Source of the DNA: a virus
IMG/VR virus record: IMGVR_UViG_3300045988_149975
Direction: 5' to 3' (one strand)
Length of the DNA: 64,000 nucleotides
Shown here: piece after piece, positions 4,378 to 57,246 of the stretch
Numbering within the stretch: position 1 is the first letter of the stretch
How the letters are laid out: the number at the start of each line of letters is the position of its first letter
The notes under the pieces: model-generated
Databases searched by the model: none
Seen by the model: only the letters and a program-made list of their open reading frames with translations
Told to the model about the DNA's origin: nothing
Position numbers and translations under genes: made by a program

Positions 4378-5451
4378 CTATTCATTGTTTTTAAGTAAGA
4401 AATCAGGATTAATGACTTTAAAGGATATATCCTCTCTATAATTTCTTACAACAATACCTTCCCTATCTATATCATATAAAAGAGATTTACCTCTTGCTTT
4501 TTCTACAATATCATGAATAGTTGGGGGAAGTATAAAATCATTTGTAAGTACAGGAACATTGTTAAGCCCTAATTTTTTGCAGATAAAACTTGCCTTATCT
4601 TGTTCAATGCGTAAATCATCTATAATTACATTGTAAACAAAGAAGTCATATCCTGAAACATGATATTTATTTCCTTGTATAGATTTACCTATAATCTCAC
4701 CTTGTATTACTACTTTATTAGCATTATATGTTTTAGCTATATCTTTTAAACAATCTTTTAAACCAAAACGCCTTGCCACTTCCCAATATGGGGAATCATC
4801 TTCTTTTCTTAACCATACATTTCTACTGCATACACCAAATTTTCCTTCATTTAAAAAATATGTAGCACTACATCCGTCTAATTTTTCAGTCATATAGAAC
4901 TTAACATTGTCCTTATGCCATTTTTCATATTGATTAGGTAAATTTTGTACCCTTTCTTCATCTGTCTTATTACATATATTTACAGGAAATGAAGCATTTG
5001 TAGTTTTAAATTTCGCTAAAAGTTTTCTAAACCACCTGTATTTCATTAAAAACCGTAAAAATCTTGGGTAACTTACACTTTGTTTAATAAGTTTTGTTTC
5101 AGCTTCAGCCTGCGGGTCATATTTAGTTATACCAAGTTCTTTTGTAACATCATCACCGATTTCATGATAACTGCCCCTTAAATAACTAATAGGTAATACC
5201 AAACCTTGTGAAATTTGCTTCCTTAATTTAATAGTTCTTACCCTGTACTTTCTATCCTTCATAAAAGCAAATTCAGGACGAGGAGGCAAAATGGAATCTA
5301 CTTCTACAAAAATAACTTTATCCCCTACATTAAAATTATCAGATTTAGATACAACACATTCCCATCCCCTTACAGTAGCCTTGAGTATTCTATCCGCATT
5401 GGGAATAGGTTCTAAACTTTCAATTCTTGCTATAGTTGCTAATTTACGCAT
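4378..5451 (-). CDS. ATP-dependent RNA ligase (Rnl-type nucleotidyltransferase, KxDG motif)
   Basis: 357 aa; MRKLATIARIESLEPIPNADRI... OB-like N-terminus typical of DRB0094-type RNA ligases; lysine motif EKLDGCSATYF. Confidence 0.6.
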   Translation of the reverse strand: MRKLATIARIESLEPIPNADRILKATVRGWECVVSKSDNFNVGDKVIFVEVDSILPPRPEFAFMKDRKYRVRTIKLRKQISQGLVLPISYLRGSYHEIGDDVTKELGITKYDPQAEAETKLIKQSVSYPRFLRFLMKYRWFRKLLAKFKTTNASFPVNICNKTDEERVQNLPNQYEKWHKDNVKFYMTEKLDGCSATYFLNEGKFGVCSRNVWLRKEDDSPYWEVARRFGLKDCLKDIAKTYNANKVVIQGEIIGKSIQGNKYHVSGYDFFVYNVIIDDLRIEQDKASFICKKLGLNNVPVLTNDFILPPTIHDIVEKARGKSLLYDIDREGIVVRNYREDISFKVINPDFLLKNNE

Positions 5452-8791: not shown

Positions 8792-11671
8792 TTAACATTT
8801 ACTATAGCCACAATTATTACAATAAGCACACTTACCATCAGGAATAAGAGTATACTCACCACATTCAGGGCATTTCATTTTGCCATTATGAATATCATCC
8901 TTTACCTCATGAATAGCTTTCTGCGTTTCCTCTGTAAGTGCTTTTTCAAAAGTATTTTTAGCATCCTCTATAGCTGTCTTATTTTCTTGCAAGTCTTTAT
9001 AAATATCTCTAATTGCACTTGCAATACAAGAAGCGCAAGATTTAGAAATATCTTTTCTACCGCTACGCATTAAATAACTACAAGCAGGACAGTTAGCGTT
9101 GCTTAACTCATCAGCAATATCTAATGCTTTACCACCAAGCCTTAAAGCATAGCTTGTAAGTCTTGCAATAGTAGAAATATTAGCTTGACAGCCTGTTTCT
9201 GCACCTACAAAAACCTCAAAAATGTGATTATCTTTTACATTTACTGTTACATAAAAATTTCTTACACAAGCTGTATGGTAAACAAAAGTGCGCCCCCAAA
9301 GGGATTTCACTCCATTACGTTTAACAGGCTCAAGATTATCTAACTGTCTTGCTTGCATATCATCTACTGTAACAGGTTCTTTAATAATCTCAACTTTTGG
9401 CACATGATTTTTAACTTCTTTATTCTCTACATCAGCACGTTTTACACCATGGTCAGTACCAAGGATATTAATGCGTTTGCAGTTATCACGAAAAATAGTA
9501 ATACCCTTACAACCATTTGACCATGCCTGCAAATAAAGGTTAAAAATATCATCTACAGTTGCACTCTCTTTAAGATTAATAGTAGAAGAAATTGCATTAT
9601 CTACATAAGACTGCATAGTAGATTGTAAATCAACCCTATCCTTGGGGTCAATATCATAAGTATCTACAATATAAGGAAACTTTTCTTTAATCTGTTCAGC
9701 AGTAAGTTCATTGGGATTATAACCTCTAAATTTTAAAAGATTTTCCACTGCAAGCATATTAATATGGAAAGATTTACCTTCTTTTTCAAGAACATGAGTA
9801 GTTCTATCATAAGACACTTGATAGTATGGTTCTACACCACCACTTTCTCTAAAGAGCATTGAAATTGAACCGGTAGGTGCAATACTCAATAAAGTGCCAT
9901 TACGCATATTTTGAGATAAATCCTTTGCCACTCTTGAAGTAAATCTGTACTGAATATCATGTACCATACCACTTTTATCAAATTTTTCTTTGTCAAATTT
10001 ACCAAAACTACCCTTTTCTGCCCCTAATTTTGCAGAAGTGGCATAGGCAGTAGTCTGCATATTGCGCATAATAGATGCTATAAGTTCAATACTTTTTTGA
10101 CTGCCATATTTAATACCCATTGCTACAAACATATCTGCCATACCAAATATGCCTAAACCAATGCTACGCCAATCATCAATACATTTCCTATTCTTATCTA
10201 AAGGTTGAAGTTCATAACCATAATCAAGAATTTCATCTAATGCGGTTACAGCATTTTTAACTGTATCACAGAATCGCTCCATATTGAAATGCGCCGTATC
10301 AGTATAAGGATTATCTACGAAGTTATAAAGATTAATACTACCTAAATTACAAGCATTATACTCTGAACCTGCAAATTCACCACAATTCCCTGTCAAAACA
10401 CCATTGGCAATGAAGGTATGATTTTTAGGCTCATTCATACAATAAACAGTATCAACTACTTCTGCTTCTTCGATAGCTACAACGCTAATTTTAGGGCAGG
10501 CATAAGCTGTTACAATAAAATCAAGGTCATTATTAAAAACAGGATGTTTATACCAATCTAAAGTGTCACCAACTTTTAAATCTTTAGCTTCAACTCTGCC
10601 GACATCCCTCAATACCCATTTATGGTAAGGGGTACACTGAACAGTAGCACCATTAGAGAATTTAATCTTTAAAGTCTTTTGGTCATGCCCTGTTACTTTA
10701 GGAGTAACTTTGCTCCACTCATAACCATTCCAAACTTCTACCTCTTTACCTGCTAATTCCCCAATAGGTTTATACCCCTTTTTAGTAAGAATAAGGGTAT
10801 CACCAGTTACACAAGGGTTTGTAGTATCAATCCTATATTCATTAATAGGATAGCCACTCAATAAGTTACATTCTCTTACATTATCAATAAATAATGCCCC
10901 AGGCTCTCCCCAATCATACTGCGCTTCACAAAATTTCCTAAAGAAATCTCTTGCATTAATTTCTTTTTTAACCTCTTCACCATTTTCTTCATTTTTAAAG
11001 TGCAACTCAAAATTCTCATTACTAATTACACTTGTCATAAAATCATCAGTGAAACATATAGAAATGTTCGCACCCTGAATTTTATCATTATTCTGTTTAA
11101 TAGTTAAAAATTCTTCAATATCAGGATGGTCACAATTCAAGGAAATCAGAATTGCTGCCCTTCTTCCGTTATTTCCAATAACTTCACCAATTACATTATA
11201 GACATCCATGAAGGAAACTGCACCGCTTGAAGTCTTTGCAGAATTATTAACTTTAGCACCCTTTGGGCGAAGGTTACTCAAATTAATACCTGCTCCACCG
11301 CCAAAGCTAAAAATTCTTGCCATTTCCTTACCTACATCAAAAATAGATTCAATGTTATCTTTAGGTGAGGGAAGAATATAACAATTACTTGTTGTGGCTC
11401 TAAATTTTCCTTTACAACCTGCTGCATAAAGTGTTCTGCCCGCAGGTAAGAAAGTACCATCTATAATACTCTCTACCATAAAATCTTGTAATTCTTTTGT
11501 AGAAAAAATACTTGATACTCTTTTAATGAAAGCATTAAATCCTGCATCAAAACCTTCCTGTTCTACAATTTTTAACTCGTCATCGTGCATATATTTTTTC
11601 TTTATAATATTTTGCGGAATTTCATCATCCCACCATACTTTATACATATTTACATTACTAATTCTACCCAA
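8792..11671 (-). CDS. nrdJ: ribonucleotide reductase (probably class II, adenosylcobalamin-dependent, monomeric type) containing a mini-intein
   Basis: Active-site NPC-GE split as ...TTNP / CVTGDTLILT...FIANGVLTGN / CGEFAGSEYNACNLGSINL; no ATP cone; Cys-rich C-terminal zinc-ribbon tail. Confidence 0.75.
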   Translation of the reverse strand: MGRISNVNMYKVWWDDEIPQNIIKKKYMHDDELKIVEQEGFDAGFNAFIKRVSSIFSTKELQDFMVESIIDGTFLPAGRTLYAAGCKGKFRATTSNCYILPSPKDNIESIFDVGKEMARIFSFGGGAGINLSNLRPKGAKVNNSAKTSSGAVSFMDVYNVIGEVIGNNGRRAAILISLNCDHPDIEEFLTIKQNNDKIQGANISICFTDDFMTSVISNENFELHFKNEENGEEVKKEINARDFFRKFCEAQYDWGEPGALFIDNVRECNLLSGYPINEYRIDTTNPCVTGDTLILTKKGYKPIGELAGKEVEVWNGYEWSKVTPKVTGHDQKTLKIKFSNGATVQCTPYHKWVLRDVGRVEAKDLKVGDTLDWYKHPVFNNDLDFIVTAYACPKISVVAIEEAEVVDTVYCMNEPKNHTFIANGVLTGNCGEFAGSEYNACNLGSINLYNFVDNPYTDTAHFNMERFCDTVKNAVTALDEILDYGYELQPLDKNRKCIDDWRSIGLGIFGMADMFVAMGIKYGSQKSIELIASIMRNMQTTAYATSAKLGAEKGSFGKFDKEKFDKSGMVHDIQYRFTSRVAKDLSQNMRNGTLLSIAPTGSISMLFRESGGVEPYYQVSYDRTTHVLEKEGKSFHINMLAVENLLKFRGYNPNELTAEQIKEKFPYIVDTYDIDPKDRVDLQSTMQSYVDNAISSTINLKESATVDDIFNLYLQAWSNGCKGITIFRDNCKRINILGTDHGVKRADVENKEVKNHVPKVEIIKEPVTVDDMQARQLDNLEPVKRNGVKSLWGRTFVYHTACVRNFYVTVNVKDNHIFEVFVGAETGCQANISTIARLTSYALRLGGKALDIADELSNANCPACSYLMRSGRKDISKSCASCIASAIRDIYKDLQENKTAIEDAKNTFEKALTEETQKAIHEVKDDIHNGKMKCPECGEYTLIPDGKCAYCNNCGYSKC
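10385..10813 (-). mobile_element. mini-intein (about 143 aa, no endonuclease domain) inserted at the RNR catalytic Cys
   Basis: Begins CVTGDTLIL and ends ...GVLTGN, followed by +1 Cys of the C-extein CGEF; residues 287-429 of the ORF. Confidence 0.7.
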
Positions 11672-12903: not shown

Positions 12904-13545
12904 TTACTTTACATTTAAAATTTTATGTAATTGTATACCTATCCTGCCCTTTATACTTCCGTCCAGTAAAGTTTTATTTATAAGTTTTACAGATTCCTCA
13001 TTGTTATTAACTGGTGAAAGAATTATTTCTGCTTTTGTAGGATATTTCTTCAAAATCTTTTTAGCAAATTCAATATCCCTCTCATTATCAATCACAAACT
13101 TAACTTCATCATAGGATTTTAATACAGCTAAATTATTATACTTATTAAGCCCTTCTACACCACTACATGGACATTTTATATCCATTACATAATTATAGCT
13201 TCTTTTATAGTCATCACTATCTATATCTATAAGTCCGCTTGTTTCAATACTTACAATATATGAAAAAGATAAAAGTTCATAAATAAGCGGGTAAATATCA
13301 TTCTGTAATAAAGGCTCTCCACCTGTTAAACAAACATATTTATTACCTAATTTACTTACCTCTAACATAATTTTATCCAAACTCATTAAACTATAATTCT
13401 TACCCTCACAAGCATATATTGAATCACAATATCTACAAAATGGCTTTGCAACACATCCATAAAACCTAATAAAAGTAGTAGGATAGCCCGTATACTTCCC
13501 CTCACCTTGTATTGATGAAAAAATTTCAACTACTTTCATTTTCAT
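12904..13545 (-). CDS. queE: 7-carboxy-7-deazaguanine synthase QueE (radical SAM)
   Basis: VEIFSSIQGEGKYTGYPTTFIRFYGC...C..C motif, and LTGGEPLL. Confidence 0.75.
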   Translation of the reverse strand: MKMKVVEIFSSIQGEGKYTGYPTTFIRFYGCVAKPFCRYCDSIYACEGKNYSLMSLDKIMLEVSKLGNKYVCLTGGEPLLQNDIYPLIYELLSFSYIVSIETSGLIDIDSDDYKRSYNYVMDIKCPCSGVEGLNKYNNLAVLKSYDEVKFVIDNERDIEFAKKILKKYPTKAEIILSPVNNNEESVKLINKTLLDGSIKGRIGIQLHKILNVK

Positions 13546-17367: not shown

Positions 17368-17677
17368 CTTTCACATCCTCTGGTTTCCAAAAACAACAAA
17401 ATGTTCTACCTTCCTCTGTTACCATATCAAAAGGGGTAACAAAAGAATTTTGGCAGATGTCATTTTCGTCATAATATTTACAACTCTCACACCTTGAAAT
17501 GAAATGGGCAGCTTTCATTAAGGCTACATAAAGCCTTGTATCATAGCCTACATGAAAATCCAATACCTCACCTCCTTTATTGTAACTCTTGATAAGCAAA
17601 TTCACCAAAATATTTGAGTTCACCTGCTCTCCTTGCTTGTTTAGCCTCTTCCTCTGTTGTATAACACCATAGTTCAC
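17345..17677 (-). CDS. hypothetical protein
   Basis: 110-aa ORF. Confidence 0.4.
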   Translation of the reverse strand: MNYGVIQQRKRLNKQGEQVNSNILVNLLIKSYNKGGEVLDFHVGYDTRLYVALMKAAHFISRCESCKYYDENDICQNSFVTPFDMVTEEGRTFCCFWKPEDVKDETEEVK

Positions 17678-18753
17678 ATTCTTTTCACAATTTCAGCAAA
17701 CAATGATTCATTTTCCCTTAAAAGACGGACTAAATTATCTTGACCTTGTGCAAGCATTTGGGAATCCATGTAATACCACGCTCCCTTACGCTCTATAATA
17801 CCTTTAAGAACAGCTAATACAACTAACTCTTTAGCGGTATCAATAGAACCTTTAGGAAGTAATCCATCATCAGTATATAAATCGTATTCACCTGTTGTAA
17901 AAGCAGCACCTAATTTATTTTTCTGAATTTTCCATTTAATTACACGCCCTACAATTTTAGCATTAGTACCAGTGCCTTCTTTAATGTAATCGCCTGCCCT
18001 TAAACGGATTTCGATACTATTAGTAAACTTTTGGCTATTTCCTCCAGGAACAGTAGTAGGATCACCATAACCACCAATTTTATCCCTAAATTGATTTATG
18101 GATAAGACAGTAGTAGGCAGTTTACCATTCCTCTCCAAAGTATTATTAAAACTTTGAAATTTACCGTGATAAGTCTGTAATTTCAATGGTTTAATACCCA
18201 TTTGAGCAGTATCAGAAATATCTGTTTCAATATACTTTGTGGGTAACATGGCAGCAATAGAATCTATCACAATAAATTCCACACCCGCTTTTTGCAATTC
18301 TACTGCAATATCTAATGCTTGTTCCATACCTTCAGGTTGACAAAATAGTAATTTATCATTATCAATACCATTCTGCGCTCCCCATTCCTCACTATAACTA
18401 CCACTTTCAATTTGAATTAAAGCAGCTTGTAGGGGTATATCACCATCATCAGCTACTACCTCATATTCAAAATTGCCTTTAGTTATTTTCTTCTTATACA
18501 TATTCTGTACGGCAGCAATGGCTTTATAAGCAAGTAAAGATTTACCACTACTCTCTTGCCCTGCAAGTGTAATATATCGCCCCGAAGGTAAGCCACCACC
18601 TAATGCGTCATTAAGTGATACACTACCTAAAGGAATTTTGAAATTCATTTCATCATTTATATCTGCGCCCTTACGGATGGCATTTACGCCAAAGCGTTTG
18701 TTTATATCTTTTATTAGTGTATTTATATCTGCCATAATTTCCTCCTTTATCAT
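17674..18753 (-). CDS. RecA/UvsX-family recombinase
   Basis: ALGGGLPSGRYITLAGQESSGKS Walker A within a RecA-like N-terminal architecture. Confidence 0.7.
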   Translation of the reverse strand: MIKEEIMADINTLIKDINKRFGVNAIRKGADINDEMNFKIPLGSVSLNDALGGGLPSGRYITLAGQESSGKSLLAYKAIAAVQNMYKKKITKGNFEYEVVADDGDIPLQAALIQIESGSYSEEWGAQNGIDNDKLLFCQPEGMEQALDIAVELQKAGVEFIVIDSIAAMLPTKYIETDISDTAQMGIKPLKLQTYHGKFQSFNNTLERNGKLPTTVLSINQFRDKIGGYGDPTTVPGGNSQKFTNSIEIRLRAGDYIKEGTGTNAKIVGRVIKWKIQKNKLGAAFTTGEYDLYTDDGLLPKGSIDTAKELVVLAVLKGIIERKGAWYYMDSQMLAQGQDNLVRLLRENESLFAEIVKRM

Positions 18754-31461: not shown

Positions 31462-31746
31462 CTATTTTAACATCTTATCAATAAGAATTTGTATCTCTTT
31501 AGGATATAACTCATAGTCATCATTCATAAGGCGTTTCATTTCAAGCCTTGAAGTGCTTAATAAATTACTTGCGGATTCATAGGTAAGAACCATCTTTTCT
31601 GATATATCCCAAAGACTATCTTGATTTACATATTTTAACATTAATATTTCTTCATTTCTTCTATGTAAACCAAGAGCAGGTATTAATGTTTTTAAGGTAT
31701 TTACATTAGCCAACTTTAACTTTCTACTAAACTCCTTCTTATCCAA
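31462..31746 (-). CDS. ArpU/sigma-70 region-4-like HTH protein (possible late-gene regulator)
   Basis: EILMLKYVNQDSLWDISEKMVLTYESASNLLSTSRLEMKRL resembles sigma region 4. Confidence 0.35.
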   Translation of the reverse strand: MDKKEFSRKLKLANVNTLKTLIPALGLHRRNEEILMLKYVNQDSLWDISEKMVLTYESASNLLSTSRLEMKRLMNDDYELYPKEIQILIDKMLK

Positions 31747-31748
31747 TC

Positions 31749-33148
31749 TTATGCCCCTAATTTTTCCACAATCTCATCTTTTGTAAAACCAAGGTTTTTA
31801 TAAAGACTCCGTGGATTTTCTACATATTCGTATTTTAAAATGGTAGTCTTACCATTTTCTTCCATTGTTTCATATTTAACTGTATCTGTATTCTTGCCTG
31901 CTTTTTCTACCTCACCTGCATAAATCCAAATATAATCATCAAATAATAGATTACCCCATAAAGGCTTCCAAACTTCCTCGTTGAAATTTTCTGCCATATA
32001 ATAGTAATCCTCTTTAGAACTTAATACTTTTGGTATACCTCTCATTAATAACTCAATCCTTTCTTTAACAGAATCTAATTTTATACTTTTACGAAAATTA
32101 TAGGTATTTGCCCACTTCATCCAACCTTCTATACTGGCTACCATACCTCTTGCATAGTCCAAATCTAAATCAGCAGTCTTTAATAGACTATCCAATTTTC
32201 TAAACCTGCGTTTTATCCTTTTTGCTGTACTCTTTCTTAATAAAACACAGTTGTTAGGAAATGTCCTATAACCAAGAAAGTCTACACCTTGCGTTATAGG
32301 AAATACATTACTTTTACTTAATAACAGGTTTAACTTATCATAAGCAAATACCTTCGCTTTTTCAGCTACCTCATGTAACTCCTTCTTATCATTACCGAAA
32401 ATTATAAAATCATCACAATACCTTATATATGCACTACATTTTAAATCATACTTTATATAAGTGTCTAATTCATTCATGTATAGATTACCAAACCACTGTG
32501 AAAGATAATTTCCAATAGGTACGCCCGCCTTTCTATGACCAAATTCCTCTACATATCTTTCAAGTTTTCCACGCATTATATCAGCATCTTTACGCCCTTC
32601 AAAATTCTTCAAATAACCTATATTAGCTTCTCTTGTTGCAAGGCTATCTATTATTATATCAAGAATACTTAATAAATCTTTATCTTTAATCTTTTTACGC
32701 AATATTATTTTCAATATTTCATGGTCAATATTTACATAAAATTGTGAAATATCAAGTTTAGCACAATACTTATACTTTCTTACATATTCAGAGCATTTTA
32801 TCATTCCCTTATGCTGCCCCTTACCTTTACGACAAGCATAACTATCATATATAAATAAACTATCCCAAATAGGCTCTAACACATTCATTATAGCATGATG
32901 TACTATTCTATCAGGATAATATGGAAGTACATAAATTAAACGCAATTTAGGCTCATACATTGAATAAATCCTATAAACGGAGTTCTTATAATTTCCATCC
33001 ATTAAATCTTTTTGTAATGATAATAGGTTAGCTTCCAAATTTTCTCTTACTTTAATAACCTCTGATAAATTTCCTTTACCTTTTCCTGCTTTTAATTCAG
33101 CAATTTTAAGATTTTCAATATCAATAATTCTATTCCAAAGATTTCCAT
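31749..33148 (-). CDS. diversity-generating retroelement (DGR) reverse transcriptase
   Basis: YIRYCDDFIIFG (YxDD); PIGNYLSQWFGNLYMNELD, the DGR-specific IGxxxSQ signature; N-terminal NLWNRIIDIENLKIAELKAGKGKGN. The conserved N-terminus extends upstream of the tracker start at 33038; see findings. Confidence 0.8.
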
Positions 33149-33397
33149 ATCTTCGTATTTGAAAAACACCCTCTCTATTAAAAAGTTTAACAAATTGGCA
33201 CTCTTTATAAAGAGTGCCAAAATGCTATTTAGGTATTTAGGTAAATTGATTTTCGCCTTAACTACTAACCCCTTTACCATCCTGTAATGTGTTTCTGCTT
33301 TCGCAGAGGATAGAGATTCAGCCGAAGGATTAGCTTTATACCTATTGTATGATACCTTCGTATCACTACAGCTACGCTCGCCGTTGTTAGAGTTCAC
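33092..33397 (-). CDS. doubtful ORF overlapping the TR and the RT 5' end (no convincing Avd features)
   Basis: 101-aa ORF; its C-terminal third overlaps the conserved RT N-terminus in another frame. Confidence 0.15.
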   Translation of the reverse strand: MNSNNGERSCSDTKVSYNRYKANPSAESLSSAKAETHYRMVKGLVVKAKINLPKYLNSILALFIKSANLLNFLIERVFFKYEDMEIFGIELLILKILKLLN

Positions 33398-33481
33398 ATT
33401 CGCTGAAGCATTATTGACATTAACTGAACGAGAACTGCAACTCGAACTGTTATTCCAGTTACTGCCGAGTTTCGCCTTTAT
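33362..33481 (-). repeat. DGR template repeat (TR)
   Basis: About 120 bp, near-identical to the VR except at roughly 25 positions. At every one of those positions the TR carries A on the minus (transcribed) strand. Confidence 0.75.
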
Positions 33482-33611
33482 AACCTCTACCCTTTTAGTT
33501 GCAACTATTTATATATATAAATTGGGGGTACGAGATGGTTGTCTACATTACCTCTCCAAGTTTATATCAACTTAAACACCACATTAACTTGAATTAATGG
33601 GCTACGCCAAC

Positions 33612-34673
33612 TCAATTCCCAAGTTTATGGAGCGGCTCACCACAGCCACGCCCGCCGCTGAAAGAGTCCACAAGCGCCGAAGCACCATTGACATCAACCG
33701 AACGAGAACCGCAACCCGAACCGCCACCCCAGAGACCGCCGAGCCTCGCCCTGTACAAAGTACCATAGCTTCTACCATAAGACTGGTCATCTACACCACT
33801 ATTATATACAGAATCATTCCAACCACTTGAACCGTTTACACCAACATCACTTGCCCATTGCCATAAGAAACCACAAGCATCTTCAAGCCCATAATTACTT
33901 ATCATTCTTCTGCCCGCTGTATCAACGTGTCCACCAGTTGTATTGGCATCTGTACTACCTTGTATATTAGTACCTTCATTACTTCCTTTTGCCGCCACCT
34001 GAAACTCATATCTCCACGGCAATCTTTTCTTTATATCAGCAAGTCTTTCTACAAACTGTTCACCATGAAATTTCTTTGTAGAAGCACCATCTGCTGTTGT
34101 TCCACCATTTACACTCACAAGTTTACTTCCATTCCACGAGTTTAAGTAAATGTCCATCCATATATCTACTTCAGGAATATAAACCATTCCTTCAGGTGAA
34201 CATTTTGGGCGATGAATTAAATCCCATACTGATTGTGGTAATATATCACCTGCTACATAACCACTTAATGTATGCCCGCTTATCGTACCCACATTTGTAC
34301 ATAAACAATGGAAACCACCTATTTTTCTACTATTATCTGCATTATAACCATTAGGTACAGTAGAATTTAAAGATAATACAAAATCTAATCCATTATTTTC
34401 TACTGCATACACATAAACATCTTTACCGTTTCTATTTGCCAAACTTAAAGACAATGTTTTATCCATATCAGTAGAGTATACATTATCATTTATTCTTAAA
34501 ACCATCCCCGCAGGTATTGTTACAGTAGTCTTATTTGTAGTCATTAAACTTTTTCTATTAAAATAAGTATCAATATACTTTGCCAAAATTTCTTCACTAA
34601 AATTTTCACCATCTATTAAAGAGTTTAAATATGCTCTAATTGTTTCTACCCTTAAATTATTTAATTTATCCAT
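33612..34673 (-). CDS. DGR target protein: tail fibre / receptor-binding protein with a C-type-lectin (FGE-like) fold VR at the C-terminus
   Basis: 353 aa; C-terminal ...YRARLGGLWGGGSGCGSRSVDVNGAS... is encoded by the VR; lies in the tail-fibre gene block. Confidence 0.7.
   Translation of the reverse strand: MDKLNNLRVETIRAYLNSLIDGENFSEEILAKYIDTYFNRKSLMTTNKTTVTIPAGMVLRINDNVYSTDMDKTLSLSLANRNGKDVYVYAVENNGLDFVLSLNSTVPNGYNADNSRKIGGFHCLCTNVGTISGHTLSGYVAGDILPQSVWDLIHRPKCSPEGMVYIPEVDIWMDIYLNSWNGSKLVSVNGGTTADGASTKKFHGEQFVERLADIKKRLPWRYEFQVAAKGSNEGTNIQGSTDANTTGGHVDTAGRRMISNYGLEDACGFLWQWASDVGVNGSSGWNDSVYNSGVDDQSYGRSYGTLYRARLGGLWGGGSGCGSRSVDVNGASALVDSFSGGRGCGEPLHKLGN
33636..33755 (-). repeat. DGR variable repeat (VR) at the 3' end of the target gene
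   Basis: Matches the TR 33362-33481. All mismatches are TR-A to VR-G/C/T on the coding strand; locally GC-rich. Confidence 0.75.
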
Positions 34674-35946: not shown

Positions 35947-36237
35947 TTGGACAATCTCCAAAGGTACTAATGGTTGGGCGAGGGAGAGTAGCACAGGATT
36001 CACAATTCAATGGGGGAGAGGCACAACATCTTCAAATTGGAATACAAAAATTTTTTTAATAGAAGTTTTAGTAGTATTTATACTATAAATTTAGATATTT
36101 ATAATCCTAATGGTAGTCCTGCAAGTGGGGTTTATCAGGACAGCGGCGGTATTACGTATTTTGATAATGATGGTTTTTACGGCGGTTTTTCACGAGTTGG
36201 TTACACGTTTTTTTGGATAGCAGTAGGTATATCTTAA
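35947..36237 (+). other. silent tail-fibre C-terminal cassette 1 (plus orientation, internally frameshifted)
   Basis: Begins with a 33-nt stretch identical to the inverse of the main gene at 37058-37090, then encodes ARESSTGFTIQWG. After an A5T7 run it continues in another frame ...NFFNRSFSSIYTI...GYTFFWIAVGIS*. Confidence 0.5.
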
Positions 36238-36816: not shown

Positions 36817-38242
36817 TTCCAATAGCATACCATAATAAATATCCTCCTGTAGTATACATTTGACCCCAAAGCCAATTAAAATTTGTTGTAGAAAAAGATT
36901 TTATACGGGAAGTATATTTTTCGTCATTAGTATTTAAACCTGTTTGTGTTAAATATACTCCATATAAAGTTGTAAACTTTCTGGGAAAAGTTGTAGTACC
37001 GGCTACTGCTTTGCCTGTAGTTCCCCATTGTATAGTAAAACCAGTAGATGATTCACGTGCCCAACCATTAGTACCTTTGGAGATTGTCCATCCATTATTA
37101 GTAATACTACCACTTCCGCCGCCGATTCCTGCACCATCAGCAGGGTCAGGTGAAGGCTGTGTACTTCCTGTTGTACCTGCTACTTTACATACCAAAAAAC
37201 AACCTGCATATTGCTTACCTACAAGTTTACGCACTGTATCTCTTGTAACAGTTTCATTAGGCTGCCAATATCCAGTATCTACATCTGTTAAAACTCTTTT
37301 CCATACATAATTAGTATCTTCACTTGCTGTATCAATAGAAAATTGCAATACATAATTTACTGCATACCCATTTCCACTCTCTGTTGTAATCTCATAAAAA
37401 ACATGATTAGTATGCGCTCTTACTACTGTCAAATTACCAGTTTGAGAAGGATAATTATATGTATTACCTTCCCCACCAATTCCCACTATGAGCATTGAAT
37501 TTGCAGGTAAAGCATTACCTATTGCATAAGGTGAATTATCTAATACTCCCCCGCTTAACCCTATTTGACTTAATTGACTATAAGTCTTAATATTTGTTAA
37601 ATCATTAAGCGATTTTTTATTTACCACATCATAATCATTTACAGGGCTTTTATCTGTCTGTAAACTTTTAAATAATGTAGGGATTACATTCATATCACTA
37701 CCTAAAGTTACTAAATTCGTAACAGATGTATTTACCACAGGGGCAATCCACTCTTCTGTTGTATAACCACTTACCCATAAAGTATCTGCATTACCAGTTG
37801 TTAGTTTTAAGCCCGCATATTTTATATTATTATATGTAAAAGTACAAGGCTCTGCTTTGGCATCATCACTATTTGTAGTATTAAAATTTACATTACATTC
37901 ATTAGAATTGTGTACTTTTTGTAAATTAATGTCACAATTTACCGCTGCTGTACTACCATTTTTAGTAGACATTACTACCTTCAATGAGCAAGCAGAGAAT
38001 TTTGCAATATCTATATTATCTAATACTGCTAAAGGCAATACCTGTGTAGTACCTGTTCCTAAAGTTGTTTCATGAATTAAGAATTTAGCATTAGTTCCTT
38101 TAAACTGTACAGGCATTACCTGCCAACGAGAAGCATCATCTACATATTCTTTTAAAGAATTAAAATTCTCATTTAATAAAGGGGCAAGTTCTGTATCTAC
38201 ATATTCTTCCCCTGTAAAAATGTGTAAATCTCCTAAAGCCAT
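36809..38242 (-). CDS. tail fibre protein whose C-terminal roughly 85-aa module is exchangeable with the silent cassettes
   Basis: 477 aa; C-terminus ...STGFTIQWGTTGKAVAGTTTFPRKFTTLYG...GGYLLWYAIGIS*, homologous to the three cassettes. Confidence 0.6.
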   Translation of the reverse strand: MALGDLHIFTGEEYVDTELAPLLNENFNSLKEYVDDASRWQVMPVQFKGTNAKFLIHETTLGTGTTQVLPLAVLDNIDIAKFSACSLKVVMSTKNGSTAAVNCDINLQKVHNSNECNVNFNTTNSDDAKAEPCTFTYNNIKYAGLKLTTGNADTLWVSGYTTEEWIAPVVNTSVTNLVTLGSDMNVIPTLFKSLQTDKSPVNDYDVVNKKSLNDLTNIKTYSQLSQIGLSGGVLDNSPYAIGNALPANSMLIVGIGGEGNTYNYPSQTGNLTVVRAHTNHVFYEITTESGNGYAVNYVLQFSIDTASEDTNYVWKRVLTDVDTGYWQPNETVTRDTVRKLVGKQYAGCFLVCKVAGTTGSTQPSPDPADGAGIGGGSGSITNNGWTISKGTNGWARESSTGFTIQWGTTGKAVAGTTTFPRKFTTLYGVYLTQTGLNTNDEKYTSRIKSFSTTNFNWLWGQMYTTGGYLLWYAIGIS

Positions 38243-56358: not shown

Positions 56359-57246
56359 TTATGTTCGAGGTATCTCGTGTATAGTCGATAGACTTTTTTC
56401 AGATAATTTATAACTCATTGATTTTGGTATAAATTCTTTTATGTAGTCGCAAAACTTTGTAAAACTTTTTGAAGGTATTCTTATCATCGGATAACCACAT
56501 TCAAGCTGAACATAGGTTTCAATTTTAATAATTTCATTTAAAGAATTGCTCAATAACTGACACTCCTCAATAGTAAAACAACAAGTTGCTATCTTACCCC
56601 AATTTCCTTTACCTTTACTACCATCATCTGCATACCATATAGCGATTGATAAAGGATTGAGCATTTCCTTAATGTTATTAGGAATAATCTTTGTTTTACC
56701 TTTATAGAACATTTCCCTTAACTGTTTTATATCTCCAAAGGCTTTTGTCCTTTTCCTAACCGATTGATAACCTTCTTTAGTTTTTCTATAATAACTACTG
56801 CTTATATCATTGCCAAAGAAACTTGCCTTATAGTTTAAGTAATCTTCTTGTTTAAGCGAATGACTTAAATAAAGTACCCTTCCATCAAGATAACCGTCAC
56901 CTAAAATGCTACCAATTACAACACTTCTTTGATTATCTGTTAAGTGCTTATAATCACTTTGTACAGCAGATATGCCATAATGTGTTAGCCATTTTGTAAC
57001 TGTACTATTCTTTACATTAAACTTTTCGCCGACATCTTTCTTCCTACCACCATTTTGAAAAACCTCTAATATCTCCTCTTTCGGTGGTATATAAGCAAAA
57101 TGTTCAAAAGTTCCTAACTTATACTCTTTAACAAGTCTTTTTATAACTTTTAAACTTACACTAAAATGTTTTGCAACTAATTTCTGACTTTTTAAGTCAT
57201 TATATACTTTTTGTAAATCTTCTTTTGCAATATAAATCTTTTTCAT
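56359..57246 (-). CDS. LAGLIDADG homing endonuclease (two-motif, intron-encoded), N-terminal HTH
   Basis: VIGSILGDGYL and SIAIWYADDGSKG motifs; its stop lies between P8 and P7' of the downstream intron core. Confidence 0.8.
   Translation of the reverse strand: MKKIYIAKEDLQKVYNDLKSQKLVAKHFSVSLKVIKRLVKEYKLGTFEHFAYIPPKEEILEVFQNGGRKKDVGEKFNVKNSTVTKWLTHYGISAVQSDYKHLTDNQRSVVIGSILGDGYLDGRVLYLSHSLKQEDYLNYKASFFGNDISSSYYRKTKEGYQSVRKRTKAFGDIKQLREMFYKGKTKIIPNNIKEMLNPLSIAIWYADDGSKGKGNWGKIATCCFTIEECQLLSNSLNEIIKIETYVQLECGYPMIRIPSKSFTKFCDYIKEFIPKSMSYKLSEKSLSTIHEIPRT

Follow-up and report, generated by a model that had tools for sequence, protein, structure and literature searches.

Ever since BPP-1, phages have been known to carry diversity-generating retroelements (DGRs) that vary their Mtd-like tail proteins. 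The locus at positions 31,749 to 34,673 of the IMG/VR virus record IMGVR_UViG_3300045988_149975 raises the question of whether it is such an element and, if so, whether it can be functional in a form that lacks the accessory protein Avd. Throughout, "the window" denotes the whole stretch of 64,000 nt that was analyzed, and all coordinates refer to it. We consider it about 93% probable that the locus is a functional DGR of a tailed phage, in which a target gene with a variable repeat (VR), a template repeat (TR), a spacer RNA, and a reverse transcriptase (RT) would operate by the mechanism described for BPP-1, to which the element is homologous (for the BPP-1 mechanism and its RNA requirements, see PMC6182149 and bioRxiv 10.1101/2023.10.23.563531). 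A preliminary description made from the sequence of the window had proposed a DGR at this position, and the mismatches between the repeats, the RT, the Mtd-type target, and the hypervariability of the VR in relatives all agree with that interpretation.

Repeats and target gene

The element is encoded entirely on the minus strand: the target gene with its VR comes first, followed by the TR, the structured spacer RNA, and the RT. The features that carry the argument are as follows (ORF, open reading frame; IMH, initiation of mutagenic homing; the slash marks the point where homology stops).

33612..34673, minus strand: target gene, encoding a 353-aa Mtd-like tail (receptor-binding) protein, identified by its ORF and by Pfam, PHROG, PDB, and Foldseek matches
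33637..33753, minus strand: VR, codons 307-346 of the 353-aa target, with 65% G+C compared with 33% for the genome
33634..33656, minus strand: VR 3′ end and homology-stop junction (GGCGGGCGTGGCTGTGGTGA/GCC), the likely, putative equivalent of an IMH
33363..33479, minus strand: TR, 117 nt, with 36 adenines and 10 AAY codons in the VR frame
33159..33362, minus strand: spacer, interpreted as the structured 3′ part of the DGR RNA, 204 nt, with covariation
33175..33169, minus strand: GAGAGGG, a Shine-Dalgarno-like motif upstream of the ATA codon
31749..33158, minus strand: DGR RT, 469 aa, with a putative ATA start at 33158..33156 and a conserved N-terminus

The TR (33479..33363) and the VR (33753..33637) align on the minus strand without gaps over 117 nt, at an offset of 274, and beyond these limits the similarity ends sharply on both sides. 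The preliminary description had placed the repeats at 33362-33481 and 33636-33755, which is within 2 nt of the limits measured here, and it had reported some 25 mismatches, every one at a TR adenine. When the mismatches were tabulated by TR base, the restriction to adenines was confirmed for 28 of 28 positions (21 A>G, four A>T, and three A>C), the earlier count being slightly low. Given 36 adenines in the TR, the hypergeometric probability of such a distribution arising by chance is 3.8e-20. When the 81 non-A positions of the TR were searched for across the window on either strand, the TR itself and one VR were the only copies to appear, and the element therefore has a single target. Read in the VR frame, the TR contains 21 adenine-containing codons, only two of which, both at the 5′ edge, can be converted to a stop codon; the ten AAY codons yield none. 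The diversity that could be generated amounts to at most about 10^18 different proteins.

At the 3′ end of the VR, three differences from the TR are near-constant A>G changes, two of them being G in 6/6 aligned VRs and one in 5/6. The junction that follows is conserved in most of the clade, reading GA/GCC in the VR versus GA/TAC in the TR, and it is plausibly the equivalent of the IMH/IMH* pair.

The 353-aa ORF (34673..33612), which ends in ...YRARLGGLWGGGSGCGSRSVDVNGASALVDSFSGGRGCGEPLHKLGN, had been described as a tail protein with the VR at its 3′ end, and both parts of that description held. The protein matches the Pfam family mtd_2nd (Mtd second domain; 1.5e-22), PHROG 11262, annotated as "tail protein" (5.9e-61), and Bordetella phage Mtd (PDB 1yu0; 8e-20), the last match extending over residues 43-344 and including the VR, which encodes residues 307-346. 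By these homologies, the VR lies at the 3′ end of the gene of an Mtd homologue. AlphaFold modelled no more than the N-terminal two thirds of the target with confidence, the predicted local distance difference test (pLDDT) score being below 50 at residues 276-353; in a Foldseek search with this model, the top five PDB matches were all Mtd variants (E ~1e-9), the next match having an E value of 0.017. Going by its alignment to the Mtd VR, the tip of the target would have a C-type-lectin fold. The C-type-lectin-like tip proposed earlier is thus supported by sequence homology to Mtd, whereas the structural model is too poor in this region (pLDDT <50) to confirm the fold.

Variation among relatives and the reverse transcriptase

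If the element is active, the VRs of natural relatives should differ at the positions encoded by TR adenines, and heterogeneity of the VR in metagenomic relatives was a check suggested in the preliminary description. The cluster of target proteins sharing 90% identity contains 285 distinct sequences in public data. In an alignment of 15 cluster members, columns 1-300 are nearly invariant, and the hypervariable positions (310, 314, 316-317, 327, 329-330, 334, 336, and 338-339) correspond to AAY and AAA codons in the TR; the check thus gave hypervariability exactly at TR-adenine codons.

DNA comparisons were made with the window and the related loci L001-L005, L011, and L012. In five of six genomes, 95-100% of the mismatches between a genome's own TR and its own VR are at A. 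The TR of L004 differs from that of the window, and the VR of L004 carries the same base as its own TR, as expected if information flows from TR to VR. Across eight genomes, the VR is polymorphic at 27 of the 36 TR-adenine columns versus 10 of the 81 others (Fisher P 5e-11), and nucleotide diversity peaks at 0.14-0.16 in the VR, compared with 0-0.06 over most of the flanks. The TR is identical or nearly so in most close relatives. The eight lineage genomes with a VR all have different VRs, their flanks being otherwise 95-100% identical. Evidently, then, the element is active in nature, this being population-level, indirect evidence for mutagenic retrohoming, and the 285-sequence target cluster, together with the VRs of the eight related genomes, makes it a clean, naturally validated example of a DGR.

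Two of nine close relatives have an altered TR (L003:5192-5308 and L012:3680-3796), whose 5′ third has lost adenines (21 and 24 versus 36) and resembles a VR; of the 15 sites changed in the L012 TR, 14 have the base of that genome's own VR. These TRs are either assembly chimeras of the two repeats or products of VR-to-TR conversion.

Turning to the enzyme, the preliminary description had noted an IGxxxSQ motif and a YxDD motif in the RT, and these are present as PIGNYLSQ (32519..32496) and YCDD (32420..32409). The best solved relative of the RT is bRT of the BPP-1 DGR (8ub7; E 1.8e-45), group II intron and retron-type RTs reaching E 5e-15 at best, and the protein matches PHROG 1423 (9e-104). 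By its motifs and by bRT being its closest PDB relative, the RT belongs to the DGR clade. An insertion of about 40 residues just before motif 4 (TREANIGYLKNFEGRKDADIMRGKLERYVEEFGHRKAG; 32525-32650, RT residues ~170-212) is common only to the closest RT homologues.

One could argue that the VR diversity reflects ordinary recombination or point mutation under diversifying selection, tail-fibre tips being recombination hot spots in many phages, and that the RT has nothing to do with it, belonging instead to a retron, a group II intron, or a defence system, since NCBIfam models for group II, Drt, and retron RTs do match it weakly. These NCBIfam matches are, however, far below their cut-offs (121 versus 300 bits and less), bRT is the best solved relative, and a search of 901 bases around the TR and VR against Rfam gave only two subthreshold matches, to families other than group II intron and retron RNAs. 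The compact VR-TR-RT layout with A-specific mismatches recurs in 73 of 89 loci of the RT clade, at VR-TR offsets of 143-330 nt (except for L077, with 946 nt). In addition, the mismatches are confined to TR adenines, and the variation is concentrated in A columns. We regard this combined explanation as extremely improbable. The comparison with group II intron and retron models was a further check that had been called for, and it leaves the RT nearest to bRT.

The DGR reading of the enzyme brings up its start codon. The program-made ORF listing began the RT at TTG 33038, and gene callers begin it at an internal Met (403 aa). The frame remains open upstream of 33038 and encodes a conserved N-terminus (IRRYGNLWNRIIDIENL..., IRRYGNLWNRIIDIENLKIAELKAGKGK...), the first 40 residues being conserved in frame and sequence among relatives. 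Matches in tblastn searches of about 80 related loci begin exactly at the residue encoded at 33158, and the codon aligned to this position is ATG (MKRHGNLW...) in 45 of 55 relatives and ATA in the present lineage. The ATA is found in 9/9 lineage genomes, always 10 nt after GAGAGGG (GGGAGGG in L001). From this we infer that the RT initiates at ATA 33158, that is, 120 nt upstream of the TTG that had been taken as its start. Such a start leads gene callers to misannotate the RT, which is relevant to automated surveys of DGRs.

The start codon also bears on the idea that the DGR is a relic in this genome, the mismatch pattern recording past activity of an RT that is no longer made. This idea draws on the missing canonical start upstream of 33038, on the terminator-like hairpin just upstream of the RT (33220..33195), and on the truncated 403-aa RT annotated by gene callers. 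What makes it very unlikely is that the nine lineage genomes share the ATA and the Shine-Dalgarno-like motif while the eight VRs all differ, which indicates that diversification continued after the ATA arose; in addition, the N-terminal 40 aa are conserved in frame and residues, and the catalytic motifs are intact. We therefore retain the reading of a functional DGR.

Spacer RNA, absence of Avd, and the acidic domain

The RNA between the TR and the RT contains the following features, the coordinates of the first, second, and fourth being derived from columns of the family alignment mapped to the window.

33360-33356 / 33327-33323, minus strand: helix 1
~33323-33319, minus strand: invariant GGCUG
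~33308-33294, minus strand: CUGC-GAAA-GCAG hairpin
~33278-33240, minus strand: stem-loop carrying UAGUAG...GAAA
33195..33220, minus strand: terminator-like hairpin, a perfect 11-bp stem followed by UUUGUU, lineage-specific

The spacer has a fold z-score of −4.9. An alignment of 42 related spacers revealed three helices and the invariant segments GGCUG, AAAAUACA, UAGUA, and GAAAG. Helix 1 begins three bases past the end of the TR/VR homology, and a 9-bp stem encloses UAGUAG, a 2-bp hairpin, and GAAAG. Over 16 pairs (659 cells) in these 42 spacers, 90.3% of the cells are paired, compared with 35-46% when the partners are slid by one to three columns; the covariation score is 0.83 versus at most 0.20 with slid partners, and double changes occur in 15 of the 16 pairs. 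In the row for the window, two pairs of the stem-loop are G-A, and this stem was re-registered by eye (GGUAAA/UUUACC). Covariation thus strongly supports a conserved structure of the spacer RNA. In BPP-1, the RNA that follows the TR serves as primer for complementary DNA (cDNA) synthesis and is wrapped around the RT-Avd complex (bioRxiv 10.1101/2023.10.23.563531); by analogy, this spacer RNA may have a comparable role in priming and wrapping.

The Rfam family Phage_DGR (RF03022) matches 33369..33239 below threshold (22.7 bits, E 0.15) over the full model (1-127). The match runs, on the same strand, from the 3′ end of the TR into the spacer and includes the motifs AAUACA..GG and GAGUAG..GAAA. 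None of 17 related loci reaches the gathering threshold either (0/17), and the RNA of this clade is at best a distant variant of RF03022.

The terminator-like hairpin separates the conserved RNA structure from the start of the RT, and in L011 a G-C pair is replaced by A-U through compensatory changes on both stem arms. The spacer is about 204 nt long in this lineage versus 113-190 nt elsewhere. The hairpin might end the TR RNA or attenuate expression of the RT.

Avd is a four-helix-bundle protein of the Pfam 23S_rRNA_IVP family. The gap of 157 nt between VR and TR is too short for a gene. Two candidates near the TR were rejected as accessory genes. A 101-aa ORF (33397..33092), considered as an Avd-like gene, begins within the TR and finishes in an alternative frame of the RT N-terminus; Pfam and NCBIfam give no match for it, and gene callers do not report it in the near-identical relatives L001-L005. 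A called gene of 115 aa between target and RT in L006 spans the TR of that element and was read as not real. On this evidence, the element is classed as an Avd-less DGR of the known "Architecture A," which accounts for 29% of surveyed DGRs and for which Wu et al. inferred an Avd-independent mechanism (PMC5758913).

Several results weigh against a functional DGR that works like BPP-1. To begin with, the evidence gathered here consists of sequence only, and the mechanism rests on homology to BPP-1. The A>G changes make up 75% of all changes, which is more biased than random A-to-N replacement. Several AGT>GGT (Ser>Gly) positions have G in every VR examined, suggesting that these are fixed scaffold glycines and not sites of free diversification, and the A>G bias probably stems in part from positions of this kind. 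Downstream of the VR, a GC-rich hairpin did not reach significance (z −1.65), nor did a cruciform. The RT lacks a canonical start codon, there being no ATG, GTG, or TTG in frame upstream of 33038, and the RF03022 score of 22.7 bits compares with a gathering threshold of 50. Finally, the Avd Pfam family had no match in the window, where 42 minus-strand ORFs of 90-200 aa were scanned, nor in the gene calls of relatives within 4-6 kb. As no Avd was found, there would be no RT-Avd complex of the BPP-1 style, and the details of the BPP-1 model may not hold for this element.

Compared with the BPP-1 DGR (mtd-VR / avd / TR / brt), the window element likewise has an Mtd-homologous target with the VR at its 3′ end, an RT closest to bRT, adenine-specific mismatches, AAY codons in the TR, and a TR that lies upstream of the RT and is followed by structured RNA. 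It differs in having no avd, only 157 nt between VR and TR, a longer spacer (204 nt) with an extra terminator-like hairpin, no clear GC-rich hairpin after the VR, an AT-rich genome (33% G+C), and an RT with the insertion of about 40 aa before motif 4, an acidic C-terminal domain of about 100 aa, and the ATA start. It therefore lacks the Avd feature of the BPP-1-type cassette (Architecture B: avd-TR-RT). It resembles Architecture A1 of Wu et al. 2018 (PMC5758913), in which the core TR-RT lies on one strand with the target adjacent and no Avd. Architecture A1 also lacks HRDC and MSL, and the Pfam families matched by ORFs of the window include neither HRDC nor MutS-type domains, Avd being the only family sought by name. 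The target is like the Mtd-domain targets of "category a" (PMC5758913), with an Mtd domain and, by alignment, a VR of the C-type-lectin type. As a DGR, the element adds little, being of a known Avd-less type with two unusual details, namely, a fused acidic domain and the ATA start.

A C-terminal extension occurs in about 20% of DGR RTs (PMC5758913). Unlike in Architecture A1, the extension of the window RT can be matched to a small gene which most relatives carry separately from the RT, and the cassette is therefore not truly free of accessory components. The extension has the following location.

31752..32045, minus strand: acidic domain, from M372 (MRGIPKVL...), located by a profile search of relatives

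Residues 372-469 of the RT (MRGIPKVLSSKEDYYY...) have no counterpart in bRT or in most of the homologues that the RT protein search returned. The last 105 residues have an isoelectric point (pI) of 4.85, the median for the family being 4.8. A profile of the domain matches 79 of 107 fetched loci, from very different hosts: in about 14 loci, mostly of this phage lineage, it is fused in frame to the RT, and in about 60 it is a separate ORF of ~95-130 aa beside the RT, mostly starting 3-400 nt after the RT core. In L031 and L021, the separate gene has its own ATG at the residue aligned to M372. In a library of 1.84 billion proteins, 79 representatives match the domain, about 65 of them stand-alone proteins aligned from the first residue and about eight C-terminal fusions. 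No Pfam or PHROG model and no solved fold matched the domain. Its occurrence either fused to the RT or split beside it argues for a physical partnership, and we propose the domain as a candidate accessory subunit for this clade. It resembles CH1 (Architecture E, Lineage 3a, Bacteroides and relatives), a small acidic protein with a pI of 4.7 ± 0.2 that has no known motif and is found only in DGRs without avd (PMC5758913). The likeness, drawn from the description of CH1 only, lies in small size, acidity, and Avd-less context, whereas the lengths differ (~95-130 aa versus 160-169 aa for CH1).

The related DGRs that lack the acidic domain have another conserved ORF of about 100 aa right after the RT (M.KFSDFA...LPF..TIKKIGKYFTFS), with a pI of 6.6-9.5 (L014:4015-4329, L077:5023-5331, L065:5001-5309, and ~12 other loci). 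Three members of this group were scanned against Pfam and had no significant match. This ORF may be an alternative accessory gene.

An extended proposal would be that the acidic domain is an uncatalogued family of DGR accessory proteins that replaces Avd in a large clade of Mtd-type phage DGRs, the second, unrelated family of about 100 aa (KFSDFA...KYFTFS) taking the same position in the remaining members. We advance this only tentatively, as a possibility with the odds against it; if true, it would supply candidate proteins for the long-standing question of Avd-independent retrohoming, among them a naturally occurring RT fusion that lends itself to structural work. In any case, both the acidic domain, fused or split, and the spacer RNA with its covariation are testable candidates for parts of an Avd-independent mechanism. 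A different view is that the DGR is real and that Avd, or another accessory protein, is encoded by the host or in the ~35 kb of the phage genome outside the window, the acidic domain being irrelevant to retrohoming. Indeed, the 64 kb examined are part of a genome of ~95-101 kb, and Avd is so poorly conserved (PMC5758913) that Pfam could miss one. Yet neither the window nor any gene-called relative has an Avd Pfam match, Wu et al. detected no distant avd genes for the Avd-less DGRs that they surveyed (PMC5758913), and the acidic domain adjoins or is fused to the RT in those 79 of 107 loci, despite their very different hosts. We consider a distant accessory gene unlikely, though less so than a relic element.

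Taken as a functional DGR, the element would work as follows. An RNA comprising the TR and the ~120-nt conserved structure after it would be bound by the RT, with the fused acidic domain serving as accessory subunit in the absence of Avd. cDNA synthesis would begin at the 3′ end of the TR, beside helix 1 of the spacer; in BPP-1, cDNA synthesis is cis-primed by the spacer (bioRxiv 10.1101/2023.10.23.563531). The RT would copy C, G, and U faithfully and insert any nucleotide opposite adenine. Replacement of the VR by the cDNA would then rewrite the last ~40 codons of the target, changing up to 21 adenine-containing codons, and the outcome would be a phage population with differing receptor-binding tips. 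The ATA start and the terminator-like hairpin before the RT would probably keep RT levels low.

The phage and its second diversification device

The window has 33% G+C and nearly all its long ORFs on the minus strand. It reads as part of a large, AT-rich, uncultured tailed phage. Going down from ~64 kb, a structural module extends to 35 kb and is followed by the DGR, a lysis block (Amidase_3), and replication genes (helicase, DnaB, primase, and RecA, by Pfam). Near-identical sequences of 62-101 kb are present in public metagenomes, and the phage genome has a size of ~95-101 kb. A megablast search of deposited phages with 10 kb of the window gave no match at the DNA level, a tblastn search with the RT gave only matches below 40% identity, and no match above 48% was found in GTDB genomes. 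An exact search of IMG/VR with the TR pattern in which A was replaced by N found nothing; the relatives used here were found through protein searches and not by means of the TR pattern.

The preliminary description had also placed an inversion-based diversification system about 2 kb from the DGR. As a sequence feature, this system is real: a perfect 32-nt inverted repeat (35948-35979 / 37059-37090) lies within the 3′ part of a gene for a 477-aa fibre protein. The phage would thus have two independent devices for diversifying host range ~2 kb apart, namely, the DGR and invertible tail-fibre cassettes. No serine or tyrosine recombinase that could act as the invertase was found among 52 ORFs of the window. 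Further inverted repeats are present at 36588-36620/37014-37046 and 35995-36016/36537-36558, the opposite strand carries an alternative C-terminal cassette (36010-36237), and in the relative L004 a fibre-like gene is encoded on the opposite strand.

The gene next to the RT was considered as a further accessory gene.

31462-31746, minus strand: 94-aa ORF, abutting the RT stop codon

By eye, this ORF (31746..31462) resembles a sigma-70 region-4 or helix-turn-helix protein, and it has no family match. It was rejected as an accessory gene, being kept only in this phage lineage (11/107 loci), and is probably an ordinary phage gene and not a DGR component.

According to Pfam matches of the scanned ORFs, the phage encodes SpoVS, QueC, a radical-SAM protein (12904-13545), RecA (17674-18753), DnaB, primase, and RNA ligase (4378-5451). 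QueC and the radical-SAM protein could possibly be involved in 7-deazaguanine DNA modification, and SpoVS hints at a spore-forming host among the Firmicutes. The window also contains homing-endonuclease ORFs with HNH, NUMOD, and LAGLIDADG domains (e.g., 56359-57246), and the related phage L007 has a group I intron at 9034-9294, ~1.4 kb downstream of its DGR (Rfam RF00028, 92 bits).

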